From: Candidatus Krumholzibacteriia bacterium
Lineage (GTDB): Bacteria > Krumholzibacteriota > Krumholzibacteriia > Krumholzibacteriales > Krumholzibacteriaceae
Reading direction: 5' to 3'
Assembly (NCBI GenBank): GCA_963836185.1
Contig: CAWIIQ010000001.1
Coordinates: 1,568,001-1,632,000 of the forward strand
Length of the DNA: 64,000 nt
This document shows, in pieces, positions 24,793 through 41,035 of the stretch. The notes beneath the pieces were generated by a model that saw only the letters and a program-made list of their open reading frames with translations, made no database searches and was not told where the DNA came from. Within the stretch, counting starts at the first letter, position 1. Every line of letters starts with the position of its first letter. The position numbers and the translations under genes are program-made.

Positions 24793-27700
24793 TCAGACTG
24801 CTTTTATTACTACCACAGTCATGTCATCGGCCTGGTACATGTTGCCCGTGAAAGTATTGACGTCGGCGATTATGAGATCCTTGATCGCAGGTGCCGTCAT
24901 ATTCGACATATCTGTCCCGGAAAGAAGACTCTCGAGCCTGCTCTGATCGTAAAACTGCCTTGCTGAATTGAGTGCGTCGGTCACCCCGTCCGTGAAGATC
25001 ACGAGAACGTCTCCCACTGAGAGAATTATCCTGTCCTCTCTGTACCTGCTCTCTTCCAGAGCACCAAGAGGAAGACCGTGTCCGGCACCATCGAGAGTGG
25101 AAACCTTTCCATCGGATTTAATAAGGGGGGTGCTGAATCCGGCGATCGTGTATGTGACTTCCCTTTTCGGGACGTCGATGCTCGCCAGGCAAAGCGCAGT
25201 ATACATCCGCTCGTTAGTCTTCTGGTATAGCGCGTGGTTGATCCTGTTGGCGACCTCTGAGGGTGATGTGACCTCGTCTGTCCTGGAGTGTATCATCCCG
25301 CTCGACATCACCGCTATCATCGCGGCCTGCATCGCCTTGCCGGAAACGTCTCCGACCGCGACGCCGAGTTTCGTCCTGTCGTCGTCTATCCAGAAAAGAT
25401 CGTAGAAATCTCCACCGACCTCGTTTGCCGGGATACATATCCCCGATACATCGAGTCCCTTCATTACCGGGTCTTTCTGGGGCATGATCGACATCTGCGC
25501 GTCATGAGCTGTCTGAAGTTCGATCTTCATCCTCATGTTCTGCAGACGTCTTTTGTACAGGAAAAGGAATATCCCCACGACCAGGATGGAGACCAGGATC
25601 CGGAACCACCATGTATTCCAGAAGGGAGGATGGATTACAATGCGGATCGAAGCTCCCTGCTCGTTCCATATACCGTCATTGTTTGAGGCTTTTACCCGGA
25701 ACGTGTATTTACCAGGGGGGAGGGTAGTATACGTGGCGAATCTTTTCTCGTGGTCAGTATAGACCCAGTCTTCGTCGAGACCTTCCATCTTGTACGCATA
25801 ATGGTTCTTGTCAGGAGCGCTGAATTCCAGCGCCGCGAACTCGAATGAGAAGACGTAATCACTGTGTGTAAGGTGGATCTCATCGATATCAGATAACGGC
25901 TGATCGAAATTGACCTCCTCGTTGAGTTTCGAGAAGGATGTGATCACGACAGGCGGTACAAAAGGATTATCCTTTATATCAGAAGGGAAGAAGGCGTTGA
26001 ATCCTTCGGTACCTCCGAAGAACATCTCCCCGGAAGGGGCGCGATAGAATGAATTACCGTTGAATTCGTTGCTCTGCAGCCCGTCACGCTCGTTATATTT
26101 TTTGCAGACCTTTTCTCTGGGGTCGAATTTGCATATACCGTTGTTCGAGCTCAGCCAGAAGTTTCCATACTCATCCTGAAGCGCTCCGTAGATCGATTTG
26201 CTCGGCAGGCCATCCTCATCCGTATAGGCTGTAAACACTTCATTTTCACGATCGAAAGAATTGAAGCCGCCGCCCCATGTCCCAAGCCAGAGATATCCTC
26301 GCGCGTCCTCAAGGATGGAGAAGACAAAATCATTGTTGATGCTGGTGGAATCATCAGGGTCGTCCTTGTAGGCGAAAAATGAACCGGTTTCCCTGTCCAT
26401 CCTGTTGAGGCCGCCGCCCTGTGTCCCAATCCAGAAGTTGGAATCGCTGTCCTCGAAAATAACGCGGATGAAATCGTTGCTGATGCTTGACGGGTCTTCG
26501 GGGTCGTGAGCGTATAGTGTGAAAGTACCGGTTTCCCTGTCCATCCTGTTGAGGCCGCCGCCGTTCGTTCCCACCCAGAGGTTGCCTGCGCCGTCGTCGA
26601 ATATCGATCTGATCTGATCGTGACTGATGCTGGAGTGATCTTCCGGATCGTTCCTGTAGCAGATAAATCTGCCTGTATCCCTGTCAAGCCGGCAGAGTCC
26701 GCCTCCGTTTGTACCTATCCAGATCGTGCCTTCAGTATCCTTGTACACGACCCTGACTATGTCGGCGCTAAGGCTGTATGGATCCTCCGGGTCATGCCTG
26801 TAGTTTGTGTATATGCCCGTAGACCTGTCCAGAAGATCAAGGCCTCCGCCGTGAGAGCCGATCCACAATTTCCCAGGCTCGTCCTCGAGGATAGACCAGA
26901 CGATCGGATGTCCCATGGAGTTGAAGCCGTTCGGATCGTATCTGAAATGAACAAACTTCTTTCTTTTCAGATCGAACTTGTTGACGCCGCCGCCGTAAGT
27001 GCCGAGCCAGATCACACCCGATCTGTCTTCGTAGATATCGTAGATCTCGTTGTAGCTGATGCTCGTCGGGTCGTTCGGATCATTGATAAACGTAAGGAAT
27101 ATGCCGGTCTCAGGATCGAACCTGCACAGACCGCCGCCGTTAGTTCCGAGCCAGACGATTCCATTGCTGTCTTCATGGATTGCGAAGACTGCCGGGTGGC
27201 TCAGCTTGTCCGGATCGTCAGGGTCTGCCTCGTAATTCCGAAAGGATCCTGTCTTTCTGTCGAGGACCGAGATTCCTCCGCCGTTGGTGCCGATCCATAG
27301 ATTGCCGTGGCGGTCAGGATGAAGAGCCGCGATCGAATTATGGGGCAGGCTCGCTGGATTGTCCGGCTCATTGAAATAGTTGGTGAATCTGCCGGTCCTG
27401 GGATCGAGGCGGCACAGCCCTCCGCCATCTGTCCCGGCCCAGATATATCCATCACGGCAATGACAGATAGTCATGACCCTGTCAGCGCCGAGACTTCCCG
27501 GATCGTCGGGATCGTGAAGATAACTGGTAAATGTACCCGTGCTGAAATCAAGCTTGCACAGACCCTGGTCAGTACCGATCCATATGTCTCCCAGGGCGTC
27601 TTCATGGATGCAGTTTACAATGTCATTGCTTATCGTGGAGGGATCGTCCTGATCAGATCTGTAATGGATGAAGATATCGTTTTCGCTGTCGTACCTGTCG

Positions 27701-30459: not shown

Positions 30460-32235
30460 ATGAAAGGAATTCGCAAAGCATCTTCAGCTAAAGAACTTGC
30501 AGAAATCATGACAGAAAAAAGACGCAACACGCTCGTAGTATGCGTGCTTCTCGCTATTGTGCTCTTTCACATGGCTGTGGCGTGGCTGGATTTCTCCGTC
30601 CTTGCCCGAAACGGCTTTCTGTACGATGACAGCTTTTATGCCTTTCAGATAGCGCGAAATATGGCGGAGGGTGAGGGGATGACCTTCGATGGGATCCATC
30701 CAACCACCGGTTTCCAGCCCCTCTATGTATTCCTTCTTGTGCCTGTCTTCCTGCTCAGCGGGAGCGATCCAGCTCTTCCGATACATATCGCTCTTTCCAT
30801 GCTCGCGATATTCTCCGGTTTGACCGCCTACATGCTCTACAGGATAACGAGAAGATATGTCGGCTTCATGGCCGCTATCACTGCTACTCTGATCTGGGCG
30901 TTCTCCCCGATCGTAATCAGGCAGACTGCCAACGGACTCGAGACGGCGATATCCGCTTTCATGATCGCGGCAAGTGTTCTGTACTACCTTACAAGAGTGA
31001 GGGATAAGGATGAACCTCCCCCGTCCAGCTTCTTTGTGCTCGGCCTTCTTCTCGGGCTGAGTATCGTCTCAAGGATAGACGGCACCTTCCTCGCACTGAT
31101 CATGATGCTCGATTACCTCTTCGTGATGAAAAAAAGAGGGGCCGCTTCGAGGCGTCTTGCAGGGCTGATTCTGGTCCCCGCGGGTGTGCTTCTGCTGTAC
31201 GGTCCATGGCTGCTATTCAATGTCGTCGAGAGCGGGAGCATCATCCAGGACAGCGGCAGGGCAACACGCTTCCTGTCCCTGGCATACGCTTCATATTTCG
31301 GCTACGGCCCTGAATCTCTCGCTTTCAAGGGACCGGATATCTCGTTTATCTGGACGCATCTCGAGCATGCCGTTTCCTCCCTCAAAGTGATACCGCCTGT
31401 ACAGGTATTCTTCCGTTCAGCTGAAAAACTCGATGTGATGCTCGGCACGGGGGCGGCTATCAGGATCGCAGGCAACATAGCCGGATTCATCCTGCTTGCC
31501 GTCACAGGCATCGCGATACTCCGCTGGCGCAGGGACAGCAGGCGATCGAAGAGGGGAGAGGTCGATTTTCTGCTGCTATACTCGGTGACGCTGATGATCT
31601 CATACTCGCTCTATATTTTCGGCGCCTTCTTCTTCATGCGTTACTTTTACCCGATCTTTCTCGTTGCCTGCATATATCTCGCTTTCTTCCTGCAGGACGG
31701 ATTTGACTGGGTGCGCGGGCGATCGGCAGCTTTCAGGAAGATTGCTGTCGGCGCGGCTGCGGTATACATCTTTGTCTTCTCTTTCTTTTCCTATTCGCAG
31801 GCCTTCAAGTCCAATCCCGTCTATCCTTATTACGATATAGCCAGGTGGATAGAAACGAATACAAGGGAGGAAGACAAGCTCGGTGTCTTCCAGTGCGGTA
31901 CGATCGGCTACCTCTGCGACCGCAGTGTCATCAACCTCGACGGGAAAGTGAACCGCGAGGCATTCTTCGCCCTCGAGTCTGGGAGACTTGCTGAATACGT
32001 CAAAGATGAAGGAATAGATGTGGTCATAGACCACTACAAGATCATGGAGCTCTTTCTGGGAATCTCTCCCGGCGCCATGGAAGAGTCCTGTACCAGGGTG
32101 GCGCTTGGCTCGATGTATCCTACATGCGGGTGGTACGCCTTCAGGCGAGCTCTGCGCGCTACCGAAGGGCTTGCAGGGGATATCTCCGATCCCGATTCGT
32201 CCGGGTTCTCACAAACCCTCCATGAGACCGAATAA
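30460..32235 (+). CDS. GT-C (PMT/ArnT-like) membrane glycosyltransferase
   Basis: YDDSFY..IARN...G.G.TFDG...TTGFQPL first loop, GLET and R.D motifs, many TMs. Confidence 0.7.
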   Translation: MKGIRKASSAKELAEIMTEKRRNTLVVCVLLAIVLFHMAVAWLDFSVLARNGFLYDDSFYAFQIARNMAEGEGMTFDGIHPTTGFQPLYVFLLVPVFLLSGSDPALPIHIALSMLAIFSGLTAYMLYRITRRYVGFMAAITATLIWAFSPIVIRQTANGLETAISAFMIAASVLYYLTRVRDKDEPPPSSFFVLGLLLGLSIVSRIDGTFLALIMMLDYLFVMKKRGAASRRLAGLILVPAGVLLLYGPWLLFNVVESGSIIQDSGRATRFLSLAYASYFGYGPESLAFKGPDISFIWTHLEHAVSSLKVIPPVQVFFRSAEKLDVMLGTGAAIRIAGNIAGFILLAVTGIAILRWRRDSRRSKRGEVDFLLLYSVTLMISYSLYIFGAFFFMRYFYPIFLVACIYLAFFLQDGFDWVRGRSAAFRKIAVGAAAVYIFVFSFFSYSQAFKSNPVYPYYDIARWIETNTREEDKLGVFQCGTIGYLCDRSVINLDGKVNREAFFALESGRLAEYVKDEGIDVVIDHYKIMELFLGISPGAMEESCTRVALGSMYPTCGWYAFRRALRATEGLAGDISDPDSSGFSQTLHETE

Positions 32236-32250
32236 TATCCCCGGCAACAG

Positions 32251-32568
32251 CTAACGGATAAAGAACATCACCGCGACGGCTCCCATTCCGAGCAGCGCGA
32301 GCACCGACACCGATATGATCCCCGCCATCATTATCGTACGGATGAGCATCAGTCTTTTGGCTTCCTTGTAGGCTTCCATCTTGTCCTCCCATGTAAGTGG
32401 AACAGGCGCGTCGCCGGGCAGCTTCATACCTGCCGTCTCTTTCGCCATCTCAGCCAGTTCGGGGTCCGTGTCGAGGTATTCCCTTACCAGCTTCTTCGTG
32501 TCATCGCTCGCCTCTTCCTCGATGTAGAGCGGAAGCAGGTCGATTATCACATTCCTCGTAACCTCCAT
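32251..32568 (-). CDS. Membrane-anchored anti-sigma factor
   Basis: I.DLLPLY...AS..T...V ASD-like N-terminus and C-terminal TM; directly follows the ECF sigma gene. Confidence 0.75.
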   Translation of the reverse strand: MEVTRNVIIDLLPLYIEEEASDDTKKLVREYLDTDPELAEMAKETAGMKLPGDAPVPLTWEDKMEAYKEAKRLMLIRTIMMAGIISVSVLALLGMGAVAVMFFIR

Positions 32569-32569
32569 A

Positions 32570-33052
32570 TCAGGAAACCTCCTTTTTCATCCTGTCAGCG
32601 AGCAGCCTTTTTCGTACTCTGTGGACCTTTACCTTCGCAGATGCGAGAGAGAGCCCTAGAATCCGGGCAATATCGGTGTATGGCAGTTCATGTTTTACAC
32701 GGAGCACGAACGCGGTGCGGTCGCACTCGTGCATAGTAAGCAGGATCTGTTCGATCCTGCTCAGCTCATGTCTCGATTCTGTCACCCTGTCTGGGCCGGG
32801 AGAGGGATCGGAGTGAATGTCATCCAGGTCAGCCATGCGGCTCTCTTTCCGCAACTGCATAAGGTACAGGTTTCTCGCTATCGATATGAGGTAGGCTTTG
32901 AGTGTCTCAGTCCTGATATCTTCCCTGCGCGTCCAGGCTCGTATGATGGTCTCGGATGTGAGATCTTCCGCCTTCGCCCTGTCCCGGGAGATCCAGAGAG
33001 CGAATCGGTAGACGTCCTGAGAGTATGAATCGTACAGTTCCTGAAAATCCAT
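32570..33052 (-). CDS. ECF RNA polymerase sigma factor
   Basis: Region 2 (AEDLTSET..RAW, YL..IARN) and region 4 (Y.DIA.ILGLS...KVKVHR.R). Confidence 0.9.
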   Translation of the reverse strand: MDFQELYDSYSQDVYRFALWISRDRAKAEDLTSETIIRAWTRREDIRTETLKAYLISIARNLYLMQLRKESRMADLDDIHSDPSPGPDRVTESRHELSRIEQILLTMHECDRTAFVLRVKHELPYTDIARILGLSLASAKVKVHRVRKRLLADRMKKEVS

Positions 33053-33211
33053 CGTCATCCCTTCTCTGAGAATACTATGCATGAGAGGGGCAAAAGTTAC
33101 AATCAGGCGTGCATGAGGATTGTAAGGTGGATGGAATAAATGGGAGTGACGGGGGCCTCTGGCCCTGCCCCCGTGCATTTCAGGGGCGGGAGGCGGGAAC
33201 GGACTTTTAAT

Positions 33212-33239
33212 TTGAATTTGCCCGAAGGCGTGCTATAAT
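33212..33239 (+). promoter_or_regulatory. Putative sigma70 promoter with extended -10
   Basis: TTGAAT-N16-TATAAT, with TG one base before the -10. Confidence 0.55.
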
Positions 33240-33378
33240 CCCGCTGACGATTCTCAAGCGGAATATCAGAAAAAAATGATCAAAAACGAAACCCATCCGG
33301 GCGTAAGGGTTGCACCTGTCATTGCGTACAGGTGTGCCTACTCCATTTCACCACTATTCACATGAAGGAGGCAGAGCC

Positions 33379-35790
33379 ATGCGTATGAAGAGTAAGATCC
33401 TGATAGCCATCGTCTCATTGATAATGTTTCTGGGGACTCCCTCTCTTAAGGCTTTATGGATCGAGGATGGTATCGTAGTATGTACTGCAAGCGGTGTCCA
33501 GTATTTTCCCCGGATCATATCGGATGACCATGATGGTGCGATTATCGTATGGGAGGACGCCCGTGATATGTACCAGATGGTCTATGCACAGAAGGTGGAT
33601 TCCCATGGAAACGTTCAGTGGGTATCCGATGGTTTGTCCCTCACCACCGGGATAGAGGGGGACCACCAGTCCCCTGCGATGGCATCGGATGGTGCCGGCG
33701 GCGTGATCGTCACCTGGCACGATACTCGGAATTCATCTGAAGACATCTTTGTACAGAGAATCGATGCGGCAGGCAACGTTATGTGGGGACCTGGTGGGAC
33801 AGCAATCTGTACTGCCGCCGGAATGCAGTACAGTCCCGCTATCACGGCAGATGGCTCAGGTGGTGCGATTATTGTATGGGAGGACCTTCGGACCGGCGGT
33901 ATCAGAGACATCTACGCGCAGAAGATCGACGCGATGGGTGCCGTTCAGTGGACAGTTGACGGTGTGGCAATATGTACCGCTGCATTTAACCAGTATGATC
34001 CGAAAACCGTTTCAGACGGATCGGGCGGTGCGATCATCACGTGGCAGGATAACCGTAATTCTGAACATGACATCTATGCCCAGAAAATAACCGCGAGTGG
34101 CAATATCTCCTGGACGGCTGACGGCGTGCCGGTTTGCATTGTCTCTGGTGGACAGGATTACCCTGATCTTATTTCAGATGGTGGGGGTGGAGCGGTCATT
34201 GCCTGGTGGGATGAACGTGGGGGGCAGCATGATATCTACGCGCAACGTATACTCCATACTGGATCTGCCAGGTGGACCACTGGTGGTGTTCCCGTATGCG
34301 AGGCTGCCGGGAGCCAGGCGCTCCCCAGATTAGTCCCGGATGGCTCAGGCGGTGCAATCATCTCCTGGCATGATTTACGCGGTGCAACCGTTGATATCTA
34401 TGCCCAGAGGATTGACACATGGGGCAATGTCCTGTGGACGGTTGACGGCGTAGCCGTCTGCACGGCAGTTGGAACACAGGCCTATCCGGAAATCGCGCGG
34501 AACGGTACCGGGGGTGCGATCATCACATGGCAGGACGAACGTAGTTCGAACAGGAACATCTATGCACAATGTATAGATGCCGATGGAGACGTCCAGTGGG
34601 CGACTGACGGGGTGGCGCTCTGCATGGCCGGCTTGAACCAGTCCTATCCGATGATCGCTTATGACGGTTCGGGTGGTGCGATCGTCACATGGGAGGACAA
34701 TGGAAATGTCAACATCTATGCGCAGAGGATCGAGCGCAATGGCTACTGGGGCTACCCGGGTCCATATATACTGGCCGCACGGGATATCCCCGGCGATCAG
34801 GGAGGATTCGTAAACCTCTCCTGGGAGGCGAGCCGCCTTGATCCATGGCCTGAACAGGGCATCTCCAGCTATACCGTCTGGCGAGCTATCGGGGCGACAG
34901 GGATGGCTCCCATGATAGATGATGATACAGTCATCCTGACAGACATGTCTGATCTCAGCCATGGGATGGATGGGACTGTATTGCGTATGGAACAGACACC
35001 GACCGGCAATTTCTACTGGAAACTCATCTCGACGATCGATGTCTATTACCTTGAGTCATATTCGGAGATCGTCCCTACGCTTTTCGATTCGACCGCAACC
35101 AGCGATGAGCACCACTATTTCCAGGTGATCGCACATACAAGCGACCCTCTGGTATTCTGGATATCACCGCCGGACAGTGGATACTCGGTCGACAATCTCG
35201 CGCCGGCGGCTCCGCTGAGCTTCGCCGGAGAGCAGCTGTTTGTGCCTGAGGGACTGCAGCTGACCTGGGACCCAAACAACGAAACGGATCTCGCAGGCTA
35301 CAACATCTACCGTGGGACGAGTGAATCGTTTGAGCCCGGACCGGGCAGCTTTTTGACCTCGACGCCCGACACCTTCTCTCTCGACGATGGGTGGGACTGG
35401 TCAACGGGTTACTGGTACAAGGTCGCTGCCGTAGATGTCCACGGCAATGAGGGCGATTTCGCGGCGCTGGGTCCGGACATGCTCACTGGCGATGATCCAA
35501 AGCCGCTGCCCGACGCGTCATTCCTCGCGCAGAACTTTCCCAATCCCTTCAATCCACAGACTATGATCCGCTTCGGATTGAAGGAGGCATCACATGTGTC
35601 GCTGAGGATCTACGATCCGGCAGGGCGACTTGTCCGGGTGCTTGTTGACGGGCAGAGAGATACAGGGCAGTACGAGGAGCGATGGGGCGGGCTTGATGAT
35701 GCAGGGAGGAGTGTAGCAAGTGGCATCTTTTTCTACCGCCTTGTCGCCGGCAATTTCGTGCAGACCAGGAAGATGGTTTTTCTACGATAA
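33379..35790 (+). CDS. Secreted 8-repeat (probable beta-propeller) protein with Fn3-like and C-terminal FlgD-Ig/T9SS-like domain
   Basis: AAGGAGG SD; signal peptide; eight ~54-aa W..DG..VC...Q..P....DG.GGAII.W.D.R...DIYAQ repeats; C-terminal QNFPNPFNP...ASGIFFYRL...RKM. Confidence 0.85.
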   Translation: MRMKSKILIAIVSLIMFLGTPSLKALWIEDGIVVCTASGVQYFPRIISDDHDGAIIVWEDARDMYQMVYAQKVDSHGNVQWVSDGLSLTTGIEGDHQSPAMASDGAGGVIVTWHDTRNSSEDIFVQRIDAAGNVMWGPGGTAICTAAGMQYSPAITADGSGGAIIVWEDLRTGGIRDIYAQKIDAMGAVQWTVDGVAICTAAFNQYDPKTVSDGSGGAIITWQDNRNSEHDIYAQKITASGNISWTADGVPVCIVSGGQDYPDLISDGGGGAVIAWWDERGGQHDIYAQRILHTGSARWTTGGVPVCEAAGSQALPRLVPDGSGGAIISWHDLRGATVDIYAQRIDTWGNVLWTVDGVAVCTAVGTQAYPEIARNGTGGAIITWQDERSSNRNIYAQCIDADGDVQWATDGVALCMAGLNQSYPMIAYDGSGGAIVTWEDNGNVNIYAQRIERNGYWGYPGPYILAARDIPGDQGGFVNLSWEASRLDPWPEQGISSYTVWRAIGATGMAPMIDDDTVILTDMSDLSHGMDGTVLRMEQTPTGNFYWKLISTIDVYYLESYSEIVPTLFDSTATSDEHHYFQVIAHTSDPLVFWISPPDSGYSVDNLAPAAPLSFAGEQLFVPEGLQLTWDPNNETDLAGYNIYRGTSESFEPGPGSFLTSTPDTFSLDDGWDWSTGYWYKVAAVDVHGNEGDFAALGPDMLTGDDPKPLPDASFLAQNFPNPFNPQTMIRFGLKEASHVSLRIYDPAGRLVRVLVDGQRDTGQYEERWGGLDDAGRSVASGIFFYRLVAGNFVQTRKMVFLR

Positions 35791-35985
35791 CGAGTATCGT
35801 CAAGACAAACACGCCCTGGCGACGCAATTCAACCCAATCGAGCGTCGGGGGGACACCATTTGATTGGCTGATCGGGTGGACTTCCCCCGGTTCACTAGAC
35901 ACTCTATTACGATGCCTAGGAGAATACGTCCAAGGGTTACAAGAAGGAGACGCAAGGCTGATCCGCCTAACTCATTGGAAGTAAA

Positions 35986-36040
35986 TGGTGCCGGAGCCGG
36001 GAATCGAACCCGGATGAGGTTGCCCCCAGGGGATTTTGAG
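35986..36040 (-). repeat. tRNA-Leu 3'-half copy (att-like junction, distal)
   Basis: 52/55 identical to 40860-40914; identity ends at the anticodon loop. Confidence 0.92.
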
Positions 36041-36219
36041 ACGGGAAACCGAGTATTTGGAAATCGTTGATTTTCAACTACATATATCCGACAACAGAAT
36101 CTGAGAACGATTTGAATATGTTCGTTTTTGTACGAATATGTTTGATGTTATCAGGCACAATTTAGGCACAATTCTCATGCTACAATCATTTTGACACCCG
36201 CACCTGCCTTGGCTAGAAT
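36041..36219 (+). repeat. Conserved att-arm module, copy A
   Basis: IHF-like GAAATCGTTGATT (36060), GAATATGTT at 36114 and 36134, AGGCACAATTTAGGCACAATT (36153-36173), promoter. Confidence 0.85.
36191..36219 (+). promoter_or_regulatory. sigma70 promoter at the end of arm A, facing the cargo
   Basis: TTGACA-N17-TAGAAT, ending 9 bp before the kinase ATG. Confidence 0.7.
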
Positions 36220-36228
36220 CATCTCACC

Positions 36229-38614
36229 ATGCTAGGGGAAACAATATCTCATTATAGAATCTTAGATAAGCTCGGACAGGGCGGGATGGGTATGGTCTAT
36301 CGTGCAGTTGACACGAAGCTGGACCGCAAGGTGGCAATAAAGTTCCTGCCCGTTCATCTAAGCTCTGATCCCGATGCGACAAAGAGGTTCATACACGAGG
36401 CTAAGGCCGCCTCGGCGATCGATCACTCAAACATCGGGACGATCTATGAAATAGATGAGACCGAGGATGGAGTCACTTTCATCGTAATGGCTCTCTACGA
36501 CGGAGAGACACTTCGCGAGAGGATTGACAGAGGAGAGCTCAGTGTAGAGGAATCGATCGATATAGCATCCCAGATCGCCTCTGGCCTTTCAAAAGCACAC
36601 CAGAAGGACATCGTCCACAGGGACATAAAGCCATCTAACATAATCATCACGAGCGATGGGGAAGTGAAGATAATCGACTTCGGACTGGCCAAGCTTGCCG
36701 GCCGGACGAGACTGACCAAGGAGGCGAGTACGCTCGGAACAGCCGCCTACATGTCGCCCGAGCAGGCAAGGGGGGAAGAAGTAGATCACCGATCTGATAT
36801 TTTCTCTCTCGGAGTAATGTTCTACGAGATGCTTTCCGGTGAGCCTCCTTTCAAGGGTGAACACGAGGCGGCGCTTCTCTATTGTATAGTCCATGAGGAA
36901 ATAAAGCCGATCTGTGAGATTCGACACCAGCTGCCAGACACTCTGGCAGAGATAGTGTGTAGGTGTCTCGCGAAGGAGCCATCGGACCGCTTCGGGCATA
37001 CATCAGAGCTTGCCGCGCGCCTGAAGGAATTTTCCATGCAATCTTCCGGCGGCTCGTACAGGAAGCCGAGCGGGAATAGCATGATCAGGAAACTTCTGGT
37101 AATTCTCATCATCGCTGCATGCCTGATCGCTATCAGTGTGTTTGTCGTAAAAAGGTTGACAAGAGATCATATCGAAATAGAACAAAAACTGACCGCTGTG
37201 GACAACGAACTGGCCCGGCGCTGGAGCCATTCAATAGCAGTGCTCCCCTTCAGGGATTTTAGTTCCGGACAAGACCAGGCACATGTCTGCCTGGGTATAA
37301 CTGATGCTGTAAACGGTATCCTGTCGGAAATTCACGAGCTCAAGGTCATTTCGACCACATCTGTGATGAAGTTCAAGGAAACAGAGACTGATATAAAGGA
37401 TATAGGGGCCGATCTAGGAGTTGGAAATATTCTGGAAGGAACTGTTCAAAAGGAAGGAAACAGGATACGAGTCAGGGCGCAGCTCATAGAGACGGAGACC
37501 GGTTTTCACCTGTGGGCTGACACGTACGATGAGCGTTACGAAAACGTGTTTGAGGTGCAGGACAAGATTTCGCATGCGATAGCGCAGGCATTGAAACTCG
37601 AGCTGGTCCAGGGCTCGAAAAGATCCGCTGAGACCCTGCGAAGCAACATCGAAGCGTACGAGTACTACACGAGGGGGATATATCTCGTTAAGAGCAAATA
37701 CGTGATCACATTCGAAGAAGCTGACTTCCAGGCCGGGATCGATGCTGCATCGGACTATAGAGATCGATCCAAATTACGCAATGGCGTATTTTGGATTAGT
37801 CTGGGCCTTTGAGCACCATTTCCAGGTGACTGACAGCAAGAGCGACGCCGATAGTGTGAAATATTATGCCGAGAGAGCATATGCTCTGGATCCTGAGTCG
37901 GCGACAATGAACGCGATGAAGGGATATGTTCTCTACGTACACGAAAATGAACGCGATAAAGCCTTTAAGTATTTGCAGAAGGCTCTCGAGATCAATCCCA
38001 ATATCGGCGATGTGAACTTCCTGGCAGGTACATGTCTTCTCTACCACGGGCTGTACGAGCAAGCCTTGAGATTTCTACAGAGGTCTTCATCACTGGACCC
38101 TTATTACTTCTGGACACCATACAAGATCGCTATCTGCTACATGAACATGGACGATTTCGAAAATGCCGCACATTACTTCGAGGAATATTTTGAGCTGGCA
38201 CCAGTGGCACTCATGTTTCCGGGCAGATATATTTCTCTCATGGTACAGATGAACAATCTCGAAAGGGTCGAGGAACTCATCAGCGAAATGCAAAAAACAC
38301 ATCCGAACTATGGCGGGTTACCTTACTGCAAGGCCCTGCTCTTCGCTGCACGTGGAGAGAAGAAAGAAGCGCTGGCCCTTTATAGAAATTCCGCGATACT
38401 GGCGATGCTCGATATGAAGGATGAAGCAATAGCGGCTCTGAATAGAGAGATCCGTGGAACGAGAAGAAATCCCTTCATATTCTACAGGGATCTGCTCACT
38501 AATCCTTTTTACAACAACCTAAGGGATGATGATCACTTCAAAGAGATGCTGGCAGGAGAACAGGACTTGTACGACGAGACTGTTGCAAAGTACAGCTACT
38601 TCAATGACCTGTGA
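36229..38614 (+). CDS. Hanks-type Ser/Thr kinase + TM + TolB-N-like + TPR domains; frameshift near 37741
   Basis: LGQGGMG, VAIK, HRDIKPSN, DFGLA, YMSPEQ; TM; SIAVLPF domain; TPR ORF 37742-38614 continues in the +1 frame. Confidence 0.88.
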
Positions 38615-38645
38615 CAATACTTCGATGGAATATGTCGGGTAATAA

Positions 38646-38700
38646 TGGTGCCGGAGCCGGGAATCGAACCCGGATGGAGTTGCCCCCGGGGGATTTTGAG
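38646..38700 (-). repeat. tRNA-Leu 3'-half copy (att-like junction, middle)
   Basis: 55/55 identical to 40860-40914. Confidence 0.95.
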
Positions 38701-38877
38701 ACGGTACATAGAGTATTCGTAATTTATTGATTTTCAACTATATATCCGGCAACAGATTCTGAAGGCGTTTTGGATATATTCGTCTTTGTTTGGATATATT
38801 TGATATTCGTAGGCACAATTTAGGCACAATTCACATCTTCACGTTGATTTGACACCCAGGCACTGCACATGTAGTAT
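38701..38877 (+). repeat. Conserved att-arm module, copy B
   Basis: Consensus IHF site TAATTTATTGATT (38720), TTTGGATATATT at 38769 and 38789, AGGCACAATTTAGGCACAATT (38811-38831), promoter. Confidence 0.85.
38849..38877 (+). promoter_or_regulatory. sigma70 promoter at the end of arm B, facing the cargo
   Basis: TTGACA-N17-TAGTAT at the same relative position as in arm A. Confidence 0.65.
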
Positions 38878-38937
38878 CAGTACATCTTCCTAGGAAAAAC
38901 TACAAAAGCTGAATACCAGGGGCACAGGGGGAACACA

Positions 38938-39813
38938 ATGGGCAAGAGAATATTGCTATTGATCGCATCGGTCTTCATCGCAGGTGCTTCAGCGCACCAG
39001 GTCGTGAAAGCGGGATCGGAGCCACCAGCAAAAGGTGCTGCTGATATAGCCTCGCCCGGGCACTCCCAGGATATCAACAAGATCGTGGCCTTTGGAGACA
39101 GTTTTACAGATAACGGTCATGTTGATGGCCACGGCTTTAACAGAGATACAAATGGGAAAGTCTGGGTCGAATATTTATCGGATATGCTGAATTGTGATAA
39201 TTTGGACAACAGGGCTTGGGGTGGTGCTAGAACTGATTCAGGTCATTTTGCTGGACTGGATTGGTCGGGTTTCAATTGGCAGGTTGAAAACTATTCGATG
39301 ACATCTGAACCAGCAAAAACTCTTTATACAATCAGGATCGGAATAAACGACTACTGGGATGCAAAAGATGATCCCGCTCGCTCGGTATCAAATATTTAGA
39401 AAGGAATTCAAAGGCTAATTGAAAAAGGAGCAAAGAGGCTTGTCGTTTTTAACAACTTTGATCTGACATCAGCGCCAGGATATGGTCCGGAAACTGAGTA
39501 TCATGATCTAATACCGCAAGTTCGGGTATTGATATCTGAGTTCAACGATGAAATATCTGAAATGTTATTGAATGAAGAAACCGGATTAATTGTGAAATCC
39601 CCTGATGTAGAGATCACATTCATCGATATTTTTACTTTTATGAATGAATTGATCAAGAGTGAAAAATATTCGAATACTGATACCCCCTGGAAGGACTCGT
39701 ACAAATTTCCTCACCCTGATGAATTCTTATGGTATGACGAATGGCATCCAATGACCAGCTGCCACTTGGAAATTGCAAAATTTGTCCACAAGAAACTGGA
39801 ATTGAGAAAATAA
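38938..39813 (+). pseudogene. Secreted SGNH/GDSL hydrolase interrupted by an in-frame TAG (39397-39399)
   Basis: Signal peptide, FGDSFTD, AWGGA, GIND before the stop; the same frame continues KGIQRLIEKGAKRLVVFN...YDEWHP. Confidence 0.8.
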
Positions 39814-39867
39814 GGCGTTTACAATACAAAGGGTTCAACGTTTTGTTAACAGAAGGAGGAGTTAAAA

Positions 39868-40824
39868 ATGAAGAATACCTTTAATCGCAGAACGTTCTTA
39901 AAATTGGGTGCTCTCTCTTCCGCTTCTTTTATCGCATCCAGAAATTTATTTGGAATGAATCATCCTTTTACGTTGATATCTGAAAATGAAGGAGAATCAT
40001 GCCGTTTTAAGATTGGTGATCTTGAATGCTATTGTATAAACGACGGTGGCTTTGATTATGGTTATGACCACTTTTTTAAAAATGTCCCTGAAGAACAAGT
40101 TGAAAAAGTCTTAAGTGAACATAACTTACCTACTGGACCTATTTATACACCCTATACACATCTTATTGTTAAAAATGGAGAACAACTGATTCTTGTTGAT
40201 ATGGGAGCCGGGAATGTGTTGCCAAATAATGGCAAACTACCCATTACCATGAAATCTATCGGAATTGAACCATCTGAGATAGATACCATCATCATTACAC
40301 ACGCACATCCTGATCATATTGGTGGTACGCTTGATGATAAGGGAGAGCCTGTTTATGCCAATGCTCGTTACTATATGTGGAAAGGCGAGTGGGATTTCTG
40401 GTTTTCTGATAAGGCCTTTGACAAAACCTATGAATTCTTTGTGAATACAGCACGTGAACAACTCAGTCCCATCAAAGACAGGATGAATTTTCTAGAAGAA
40501 GAATCCGAGATCTTTCCCGGAGTTAACATAATCGAAGCTTCCGGACATACTCCCGGTCATATAGTCGTGTCATTTTCCTCAAAAGATGAACACCTATATT
40601 ACATCGGGGACACAGTATTATATCCTTTGCATCTGGAATATCCTGATTGGTTACCCATATATGACATTTTGCCCGATAAGGCCGAGGCCAGTAAAAGGAA
40701 GATTTTCGATCTTGTTGCGAGGGAGAACGCCTGGGTAATAGGGCAGCATTTTGTTCCGTTTCCAAGTCTCGGGCACGTAGTAAAAAAGGGAGATGGATGG
40801 CTGTTTCAGCCGATAAAGAAATAA
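39868..40824 (+). CDS. Tat-exported MBL-fold metallo-hydrolase (lactonase/organophosphate-hydrolase-like)
   Basis: AAGGAGG SD; NRRTFLK Tat motif; THAHPDHIGG, GHTPGH, GD, distal H. Confidence 0.88.
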   Translation: MKNTFNRRTFLKLGALSSASFIASRNLFGMNHPFTLISENEGESCRFKIGDLECYCINDGGFDYGYDHFFKNVPEEQVEKVLSEHNLPTGPIYTPYTHLIVKNGEQLILVDMGAGNVLPNNGKLPITMKSIGIEPSEIDTIIITHAHPDHIGGTLDDKGEPVYANARYYMWKGEWDFWFSDKAFDKTYEFFVNTAREQLSPIKDRMNFLEEESEIFPGVNIIEASGHTPGHIVVSFSSKDEHLYYIGDTVLYPLHLEYPDWLPIYDILPDKAEASKRKIFDLVARENAWVIGQHFVPFPSLGHVVKKGDGWLFQPIKK

Positions 40825-40859
40825 CGGCAGGAGGATCTGCCTGACCCGTTGATACCAAA

Positions 40860-40946
40860 TGGTGCCGGAGCCGGGAATCGAACCCGGATGGAGTTGCCCC
40901 CGGGGGATTTTGAGTCCCCTGCGTCTACCAGTTTCACCACTCCGGC
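40860..40946 (-). tRNA. tRNA-Leu(CAA)
   Basis: GCCGGAGTGGTGAAACTGGTAGACGCAGGGGACTCAAAATCCCC...GGTTCGATTCCCGGCTCCGGCACCA; 87 nt, long variable arm, encoded CCA. Confidence 0.97.
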
Positions 40947-41035
40947 ACAGCGGAAAGGTATTTTCATTATACAGCAGTGTCAAGTGATTTGGGGGGGATA
41001 TGGAGGAGCAGCTGGCGATCTCCGGGCATTTTTAC

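Follow-up and report, generated by a model that had tools for sequence, protein, structure and literature searches.

Apparent stack of small integrase-less islets at the anticodon loop of tRNA-Leu(CAA) in a Krumholzibacteriia bacterium

The sequence examined here is a 64-kb window from a Candidatus Krumholzibacteriia bacterium (G000:C1:1568001-1632000; assembly G000, 3.5 Mb, 6 contigs, 92.5% complete), in which copies of the 3' half of tRNA-Leu(CAA) delimit two short units. The explanation we favour, with somewhat better than even confidence, is that these units are a stack of small integrase-less islets, which a helper's tyrosine integrase likely inserted one by one at the anticodon loop and which are now probably fixed in place and in decay. 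The best reading of their class is an accretion stack of the cis-mobilizable element (CIME) type, drawn from a family-wide pool of small integrase-less elements; it is loosely integron-like in its working and is not an integron. The favoured explanation is supported by the junction at the anticodon loop, an arm repeat shared with the viral contig L250, integration host factor (IHF)-like sites, arms on both sides in relatives, and the integrase-encoding elements of G027 and G032. Here, G### denotes genomes of the class (G000 is the source assembly), L### loci or contigs compared, and X# sequencing runs. P is the attachment (att) arm after each tRNA half, and P' is the second arm just outside the tRNA 3' end.

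The tRNA-Leu(CAA) gene is intact (Table 1), and its 3' 55 nt are repeated twice, with 100% identity in the middle copy and 94.5% in the outer copy. An earlier note on this DNA had described three such halves delimiting units of 2660 bp (unit 1) and 2214 bp (unit 2), a homologous non-coding module at the head of both units, cargo stop codons 31 bp (unit 1) and 35 bp (unit 2) from the next repeat, and the lack of an integrase. All of these are borne out. The two modules are 78.7% identical over 150 nt (E 4e-27), and the module is present just twice in the assembly, both times at tRNA-Leu(CAA). The repeats cease to match where the anticodon loop starts, at its first base, and the loop would be the crossover region. 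Six tyrosine-recombinase queries gave no match in 32236-40860 at E<0.5, and the genome's PF00589 genes, four in number (XerC, XerD, and two resembling integron integrases), are all outside the window. No aimed search was made for excisionase, rep, or transposase genes, and the open reading frames (ORFs) of the units match other families (kinase, TPR, GDSL, and metallo-beta-lactamase (MBL)) or none. The G+C content is 48% and 41% in the two units, versus 54% window-wide. Remnants of a second arm at 40825-40859 and 35945-35985 were overlooked in the earlier note. The former was assigned by alignment and is under the P' profile threshold.

The shared module is, judged by its sequence, a tyrosine-integrase (phage-type) attachment arm P, as had been proposed. 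It contains an IHF-like site 19 nt from the core and a direct repeat with 11-bp spacing ~110 nt out. Scored with the IHF consensus, this site keeps a fixed position, being seen there with 0-1 mismatch in 4 of 7 P arms and with 0-2 mismatches in 7 of 7 P' arms. L250, a viral contig of 57 kb, encodes a PF00589 integrase whose stop codon overlaps an identical arm repeat, which is followed by a tRNA half. Two further identical repeat pairs are placed across this tRNA half, and the phage uses a different tRNA. The junction and repeat pattern is found at 32 metagenome loci and 8 genome loci, corresponding to 33 distinct junctions, and the genome hits are titled Acidobacteria, two Desulfo- genera, a Pseudomonadota metagenome-assembled genome, and Krumholzibacteriota. 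Many of these contigs are too short to be judged; an intact integrase aimed at the tRNA half is seen at three of the 33 junctions, a stump at one, and an integrase in the opposite direction at one. L144 carries a 7.1-kb unit with the same arm, a matching repeat at the far end, and a GGCACA-type P'. Its C-terminal integrase stump (~55 codons), next to this P', is 72% identical to the L135 integrase over 43 residues, which links the arm type to the L135 integrase family. The same arm type is also seen in a 2.7-kb unit at tRNA-Leu(CAA) of a 38% G+C organism (L117:1700-4437), which contains an AbiE toxin-antitoxin pair and gives no integrase hit.

Among the 207 other genomes of the class (208 with G000), the P arm matches three, G017, G025, and G028, each time after a tRNA-Leu half and ahead of a kinase gene. 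Marginal hits of 24-28 nt in G067 and G121 were dropped. In 52 genomes of the order, the repeat pattern gives 18 matches versus 3 in a reversed control, and 14 of the 18 are at this locus. The P' arm is ~85 nt long, directly outside the tRNA 3' end. It is found beside tRNA-Leu(CAA) or its half in G002, G005, G006, G017 (twice), G019, G024, and G025, with no adjoining integrase, and G028 has P' copies partly detached from halves. The genes adjoining P' are kinases, an Mrr-type nuclease, and unknown genes. In G017 (twice), G025, and G028, where there are three different kinase ends, ~15-30 bp separate the cargo stop codon from P'. A full unit in the relatives is composed of the P arm, a promoter, one or two genes, and the P' arm, and the stretch between the two halves of G025 keeps both outer arms without an integrase. 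G017, G025, and G028 contain stacks of ~2-4 units with partly collapsed junctions, which are a triple repeat, a P' stub fused to the promoter, or a 26-bp half fused to the promoter. Several contigs among the 25 family loci surveyed for tRNA-Leu(CAA) stop at or near the tRNA, and the counts in relatives are thus lower bounds. Short second copies of the tRNA-Leu 3' end with a similar spacer are seen within ~60 bp of the tRNA 3' end in G014 (L039), G015 (L046), G021 (L042), and G023 (L049), and resemble the gene-less microCIMEs of streptococci.

G007 and G008 represent the empty site. The homologue of the gene at 30460-32235 matches to within 99 and 82 bp of their tRNA, and the variable zone of the window is therefore 32236-40859. 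Integrase-encoding elements are present at the same tRNA in G027 and G032. The element of G027 (L048:2284-5100) encodes a tyrosine integrase, a helix-turn-helix regulator, and a rolling-circle-type Rep; its arm letters are different, and it is a candidate helper type. A 1735-bp unit of G030 keeps ~15 C-terminal codons of a G027/G032-like integrase. Three expectations of the earlier note are thus realized: integrase-less units with different cargo recur beside tRNA-Leu halves, their number and content vary among relatives, and related integrases adjoin the same arm type elsewhere. What it had named as evidence against itself, that such units are deletion remnants of large integrase-encoding islands, is true in part, in that integrase stumps persist in two sister elements found at this tRNA (G030, L144).

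Two other tRNA genes of the source genome are accompanied by displaced copies. A 6.6-kb island at tRNA-Val(TAC) (G000:C3:545057-551777) has a 48-bp displaced half, its own direct repeat, and a truncated integrase N-terminus (Arm-DNA-bind_3), with no PF00589 gene. At tRNA-Pro(TGG), a 65-bp, 91% copy is found 4.3 kb downstream (G000:C3:340963-345421), with no PF00589 gene between.

Excision of the lambda type requires arm sites on both sides. Unit 1 retains nothing of P' and unit 2 retains 35 bp; the arm-type P' repeats are absent from both, so the complete minimal cassettes of the earlier note are not seen in the window. As the P' sites are lost, the window copies are probably fixed and decaying. 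Read-derived evidence comes from 8 of 20 runs, all of them low-depth contigs of related strains. These contigs span the junctions of MBL gene, stub, and half (X1, X4), kinase end and half (X3), half 1 and arm 1 (X6), and arm 2, promoter, and SGNH gene (X7, X9). Across the 8 runs, no single contig crosses the middle half into unique sequence at both ends. Deletions in related strains remove SGNH sequence (X4, X9) and 41 nt of arm 2, reaching into its repeat (X9). In X1 and X4, six of eight differences are within the 35-bp P' stub and two are in >520 bp of MBL (p about 1e-6). This concentration makes it likely that the stub was exchanged with the P' of another element, perhaps one that was inserted in front and then lost by recombination. 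Decay is further supported by the integrase stumps of G030 and L144, the fused arms of G025, G028, and G017, and the broken cargo. The integrase stump at tRNA-Val in the same genome also speaks for the favoured explanation.

Table 1. Features of the variable zone and tRNA-Leu(CAA) (window positions)
Feature	Position	Strand	Remarks
Outer variable zone: anti-sigma, extracytoplasmic function (ECF) sigma, secreted FlgD-Ig protein	32236..35944	.	Family searches
Core-proximal P' stub, without arm-type repeats	35945..35985	-	85% over 40 nt to full P' of G005; profile E 0.017
tRNA-Leu(CAA) 3' half, copy 1	35986..36040	-	52/55 identical to gene
P arm 1	36041..36175	.	IHF-like site 36060-36072; arm-type direct repeat 36153-36170
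Predicted sigma-70-type promoter, 11/12	36191..36219	+	Ends 9 nt before kinase ATG; near-leaderless predicted
Ser/Thr kinase-TPR gene, frameshifted near 37741	36229..38614	+	ORFs 36229-37812 and 37742-38614
31-bp spacer of unit 1, no P' remaining	38615..38645	.	Spacer different in one X2 contig
tRNA-Leu(CAA) 3' half, copy 2	38646..38700	-	Identical to gene
P arm 2	38701..38835	.	Exact IHF consensus 38720-38732; arm-type direct repeat 38811-38828
Predicted sigma-70-type promoter, 10/12	38849..38877	+	
Likely kinase-gene-start relic	38890..38904	+	Position-specific scoring matrix from 7 kinase starts, shuffle p = 0.0024
SGNH/GDSL hydrolase gene, in-frame TAG 39397-39399	38938..39813	+	
MBL-fold hydrolase, intact	39868..40824	+	Best match AidB-type lactonase, under family cut-off
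35-bp P' stub of unit 2, without arm-type repeats	40825..40859	-	IHF-like site; terminator-like hairpin 40826-40841
Intact tRNA-Leu(CAA)	40860..40946	-	Anticodon loop 40908-40914

The kinase, SGNH, and MBL genes named as cargo in the earlier note are present, with the correction that the first two are broken. Both are intact in related strains. One X3 contig has two additional bases at the kinase frameshift, and the TAG codon of SGNH is a sense codon in X1, X2, X3, X5, X6, and X9 (6/8 runs); these differences indicate that the two breaks are strain-specific or sequencing errors. The promoter scan finds 11 sites versus 9.2 +/- 3.4 expected, and support for the two promoters comes from position and conservation only. 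The same -35/-10 pair with a near-leaderless start is found upstream of two arm-less kinase paralogues in the source genome. Contrary to what had been supposed, the promoter is therefore not a part of the arm; it likely came along with the kinase gene. The kinase-start relic of unit 2 lies at the 12-nt spacing expected from kinase-headed units, which makes it likely that unit 2 is a kinase unit that was remodelled. Of the 207 other genomes, one, G097, has a close relative of the MBL gene (67%), with no tRNA or arm within 19 kb, so unit 2, traced by this gene, is not found elsewhere in the class set.

Kinases of this kind are also seen in other contexts. A frameshifted paralogue with the same promoter (G000:C1:1097992-1098940) follows a 116-nt attC-like hairpin inside an integron array, and one kinase clade thus occupies both integron and tRNA-att contexts. 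The arm-less kinase at G000:C3:211511 is 80% identical to the kinase L037:1922-4825 in the tRNA-Leu stack of G017, with fourfold sites at 56/100. This pair is closer than all other kinase-domain pairs tested.

In the outer zone, the third P' stub (35945-35985) hints at an older, lost unit, and the genes at 32236-35944 are possibly the cargo of an older unit whose far junction has been lost. The ECF sigma/anti-sigma pair (32251-33178) is also near tRNA-Leu(CAA) in G015 and G025, and the sigma gene alone in G023. Two beta-propeller genes of the window have internal periodic repeats of 144 bp (26267-27301) and ~165 bp (33523-34742), which are ordinary protein repeats.

Across three genera and two metagenome contigs, the similarity between P arms is 73-84%. 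Between the two P arms of the window it is 79.7%, no higher than with arms from other genera (73-82%). On this comparison, the two units arrived independently and did not originate by local duplication. A kinase 3' end that runs into P' without an integrase is common to G025 and G028, with 82.5% nucleotide identity over 480 bp. The fourfold sites of this junction are 27/50 versus 38/110 for recA (p = 0.016), and other core genes give 28/120 and 15/53. This suggests that the integrase-free kinase-P' junction was transferred after the two genera split.

Mobilization in trans, as the earlier note had it, gained no support from searches for a cognate integrase (two queries, 208 genomes) or for a circle joint (8 runs). 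The G027 integrase query matches 10 of the 208 class genomes and the L250 integrase matches 4, weakly, with none at these arms. None of the four PF00589 genes of the source genome is beside a tRNA. Around the PF00589 loci of 10 relatives, no P or P' of this type is seen other than, in G017, a variant that differs by one letter and is located at another site. The P-junction pattern, the P' pattern, and the G027 protein were also run against viral sequences, without a match. Neither a circle joint nor an empty site is seen in the 8 runs, a weak result given that these are low-depth contigs of related strains only. One weak joint in X3 skips unit 1 (36009 to 38723, 39-nt side). Among the units observed, none occupies a second position or locus.

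The stack would have been built up in several steps. A lambda-type integrase of the G027/L135 kind, with host IHF, would recombine an attP circle with the anticodon loop, and older units would be pushed outward. The integrase of the pool would have been lost early on, and at least some units would have moved in its absence; the simplest route is in cis, by CIME accretion, beside a helper that has since departed. Units would usually begin with a kinase gene under its own promoter, and unit 2 would descend from one of these through deletion or replacement. Deletions joining P repeats to the similar repeats of P' would collapse junctions and fix the cargo.

Several facts weigh against this explanation. 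No integrase C-terminal stump is seen at any of the 10 P' arms in relatives or the three window junctions, and both controls were positive. No helper with exactly these arm letters is found at tRNA-Leu(CAA) in the class. The non-coding P arms are 73-84% alike across three genera, while silent sites of core genes are saturated. The lack of P' stumps and the conserved P arms fit a long-lived dedicated cassette pool at least as well. The suggested transfer between G025 and G028 rests on one 480-nt block, which cannot separate cis from trans movement, and the kinase N-terminal stump of the same pair is saturated (12/33). That the loss of P' would block excision is an expectation from lambda biology.

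One alternative, the view of the earlier note, is a dedicated and still active cassette system, in which an integrase encoded elsewhere excises and re-inserts minimal P-cargo-P' circles in trans and the tRNA site serves as an integron-like gene collector. The close spacing of cargo stops and P' in G017, G025, and G028 with three different kinase ends, the 10 P' arms without stumps, the arms conserved across genera, the stretch of G025 with both outer arms, and the weak joint of X3 all speak for it. We nevertheless consider it doubtful. The window units have no P' repeats, and two of their three cargo genes are broken. The genome, at 92.5% completeness, has only XerC, XerD, and two integron-integrase-like recombinases, and its arms are only at tRNA-Leu(CAA). 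No unit is seen to change position or locus, and no back-joint is seen in the 8 runs, although this is weak, as contigs only were available. It is also possible, if hardly less doubtful, that Krumholzibacteriota keep a self-sustaining pool of minimal recombinase-less cassettes (P, promoter, one gene, and P'), which a helper island carrying Rep excises and stacks in trans at tRNA-Leu(CAA). This pool would spread Ser/Thr kinases between genera and trade them with integron arrays; it would be an equivalent of the integron made of phage att sites, and the window would contain two spent copies.

The opposite alternative is that every unit started out at the site as a larger, integrase-encoding island and was reduced there, without any integrase-less movement. 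The C-terminal codons kept in the 1735-bp unit of G030 (~15) and the 7.1-kb unit of L144 (~55) agree with this, deletions are still occurring in related strains, and CIMEs of 1.2-13 kb originate in this manner (PMC7563491). However, the G025/G028 junction appears younger than the genus split, and independent deletions should often leave stumps, which is the case at 0 of 10 arms. Shrinkage alone is thus improbable. Local tandem duplication or misassembly of the repeat is far less probable still: the middle half is unbridged in the 8 runs and the two frame breaks could be sequencing errors, but the cargo is unrelated, the P arms are no closer to each other than to those of other genera, contigs of other runs span the junctions listed above, and the locus sits inside a 2.3-Mb contig.

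Integrase-less stacks are probably under-counted, because catalogues such as Islander reject candidates without an integrase. Should intact members be mobile in trans, arm and tRNA-half DNA totalling ~280 bp would suffice to turn any gene into a site-specific mobile cassette. Integron-like gene collection would then have a second route, and the abundance of kinase paralogues in the lineage would be easier to explain. Otherwise, the locus is a well-resolved but ordinary example of islands accreting and decaying. With the arms, the candidate helper family, and intact units from relatives, the matter can be tested in a laboratory strain.

CIMEs have lost integration and transfer genes and kept att sites, are 1.2-13 kb long, and stack by accretion (PMC5704250, PMC7563491). 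The units resemble streptococcal CIMEs in the lack of integration and transfer genes, size range, cargo, stacking where the target gene ends, and the proposed reliance on the tyrosine integrase of a related element (PMC5704250, PMC7563491). The ORFs of the units encode kinase, TPR, GDSL, and MBL proteins and no integrase or transfer protein. Both att sites are kept in the G025 stretch between halves, whereas the window copies keep the core and P and are without one arm-site set, and so are not CIMEs in the strict sense. An origin by deletion would agree with the stumps of G030 and L144, and no stump is seen at the 10 P' arms of this arm type or the three window junctions. Unlike CIMEs, the units have no active integrative and conjugative or integrative and mobilizable element in tandem, from which they may or may not descend, and members of the pool are found in several genera, a kinase gene usually coming first.

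Dehalococcoides ssrA islands are likewise tandem and marked by repeats of the target 3' end, and 15 of 31 are without an integration module and were proposed to be CIMEs (PMC3146451). They differ in the tmRNA target, a CcrB-like serine recombinase, a 20-bp repeat, and the ~12 kb size of the vcrABC islands (PMC3146451). The anticodon loop is one standard crossover site of tyrosine integrases in tRNA genes, used by 2083 of 3919 islands in the Islander/TIGER collection, which includes 125 tandem arrays (PMC4383910). With these islands the units share a displaced 3' tRNA fragment, here in direct orientation, a loop crossover, and tandem arrays; arm-type repeats and host-factor sites flank the core on the P side only, and there is no integrase inside. 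As Islander discards candidates without an integrase, such units are outside that catalogue by design (PMC4383910). Prochlorococcus tycheposons are also placed side by side with partial tRNA copies between them, newer ones pushing older ones outward, and leave degenerate remnants, but they encode their own integrase and often a replication module (bioRxiv 10.1101/2020.12.28.424599).

The array is like an integron in that small gene units would have been added at one site by a shared tyrosine recombinase. Integrons gather such units with a recombinase of this class and are defined by intI, attI, and attC. In contrast, none of these three is found at the locus, the junctions are of the double-stranded phage type, and promoters are per unit. 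The two integron-integrase-like genes are ~0.5 Mb off on either side; one such gene (G000:C1:2064000-2073041) is next to a run of short unrelated ORFs. One attC-like site of the genome has no hit in 32201-41000 by BLAST, used without an attC model, and the junctions are tRNA halves. Attachment-site-like pieces of the attC kind, noted by eye next to P' in G025 and G005, were dropped, as they gave no BLAST hit with that site. For excision of single cassettes, the 8 contig runs offer no circle joint and one weak joint skipping unit 1. No published description of this unit family was found in the literature, supplementary island lists not being covered. Units of the pool may be mobile in trans, and the window copies look spent. 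The stack is a real feature and a variant of known island accretion, and what distinguishes it from the systems above is that its units belong to a pool spanning genera, in which one or two genes are set flush against the arms on both sides.

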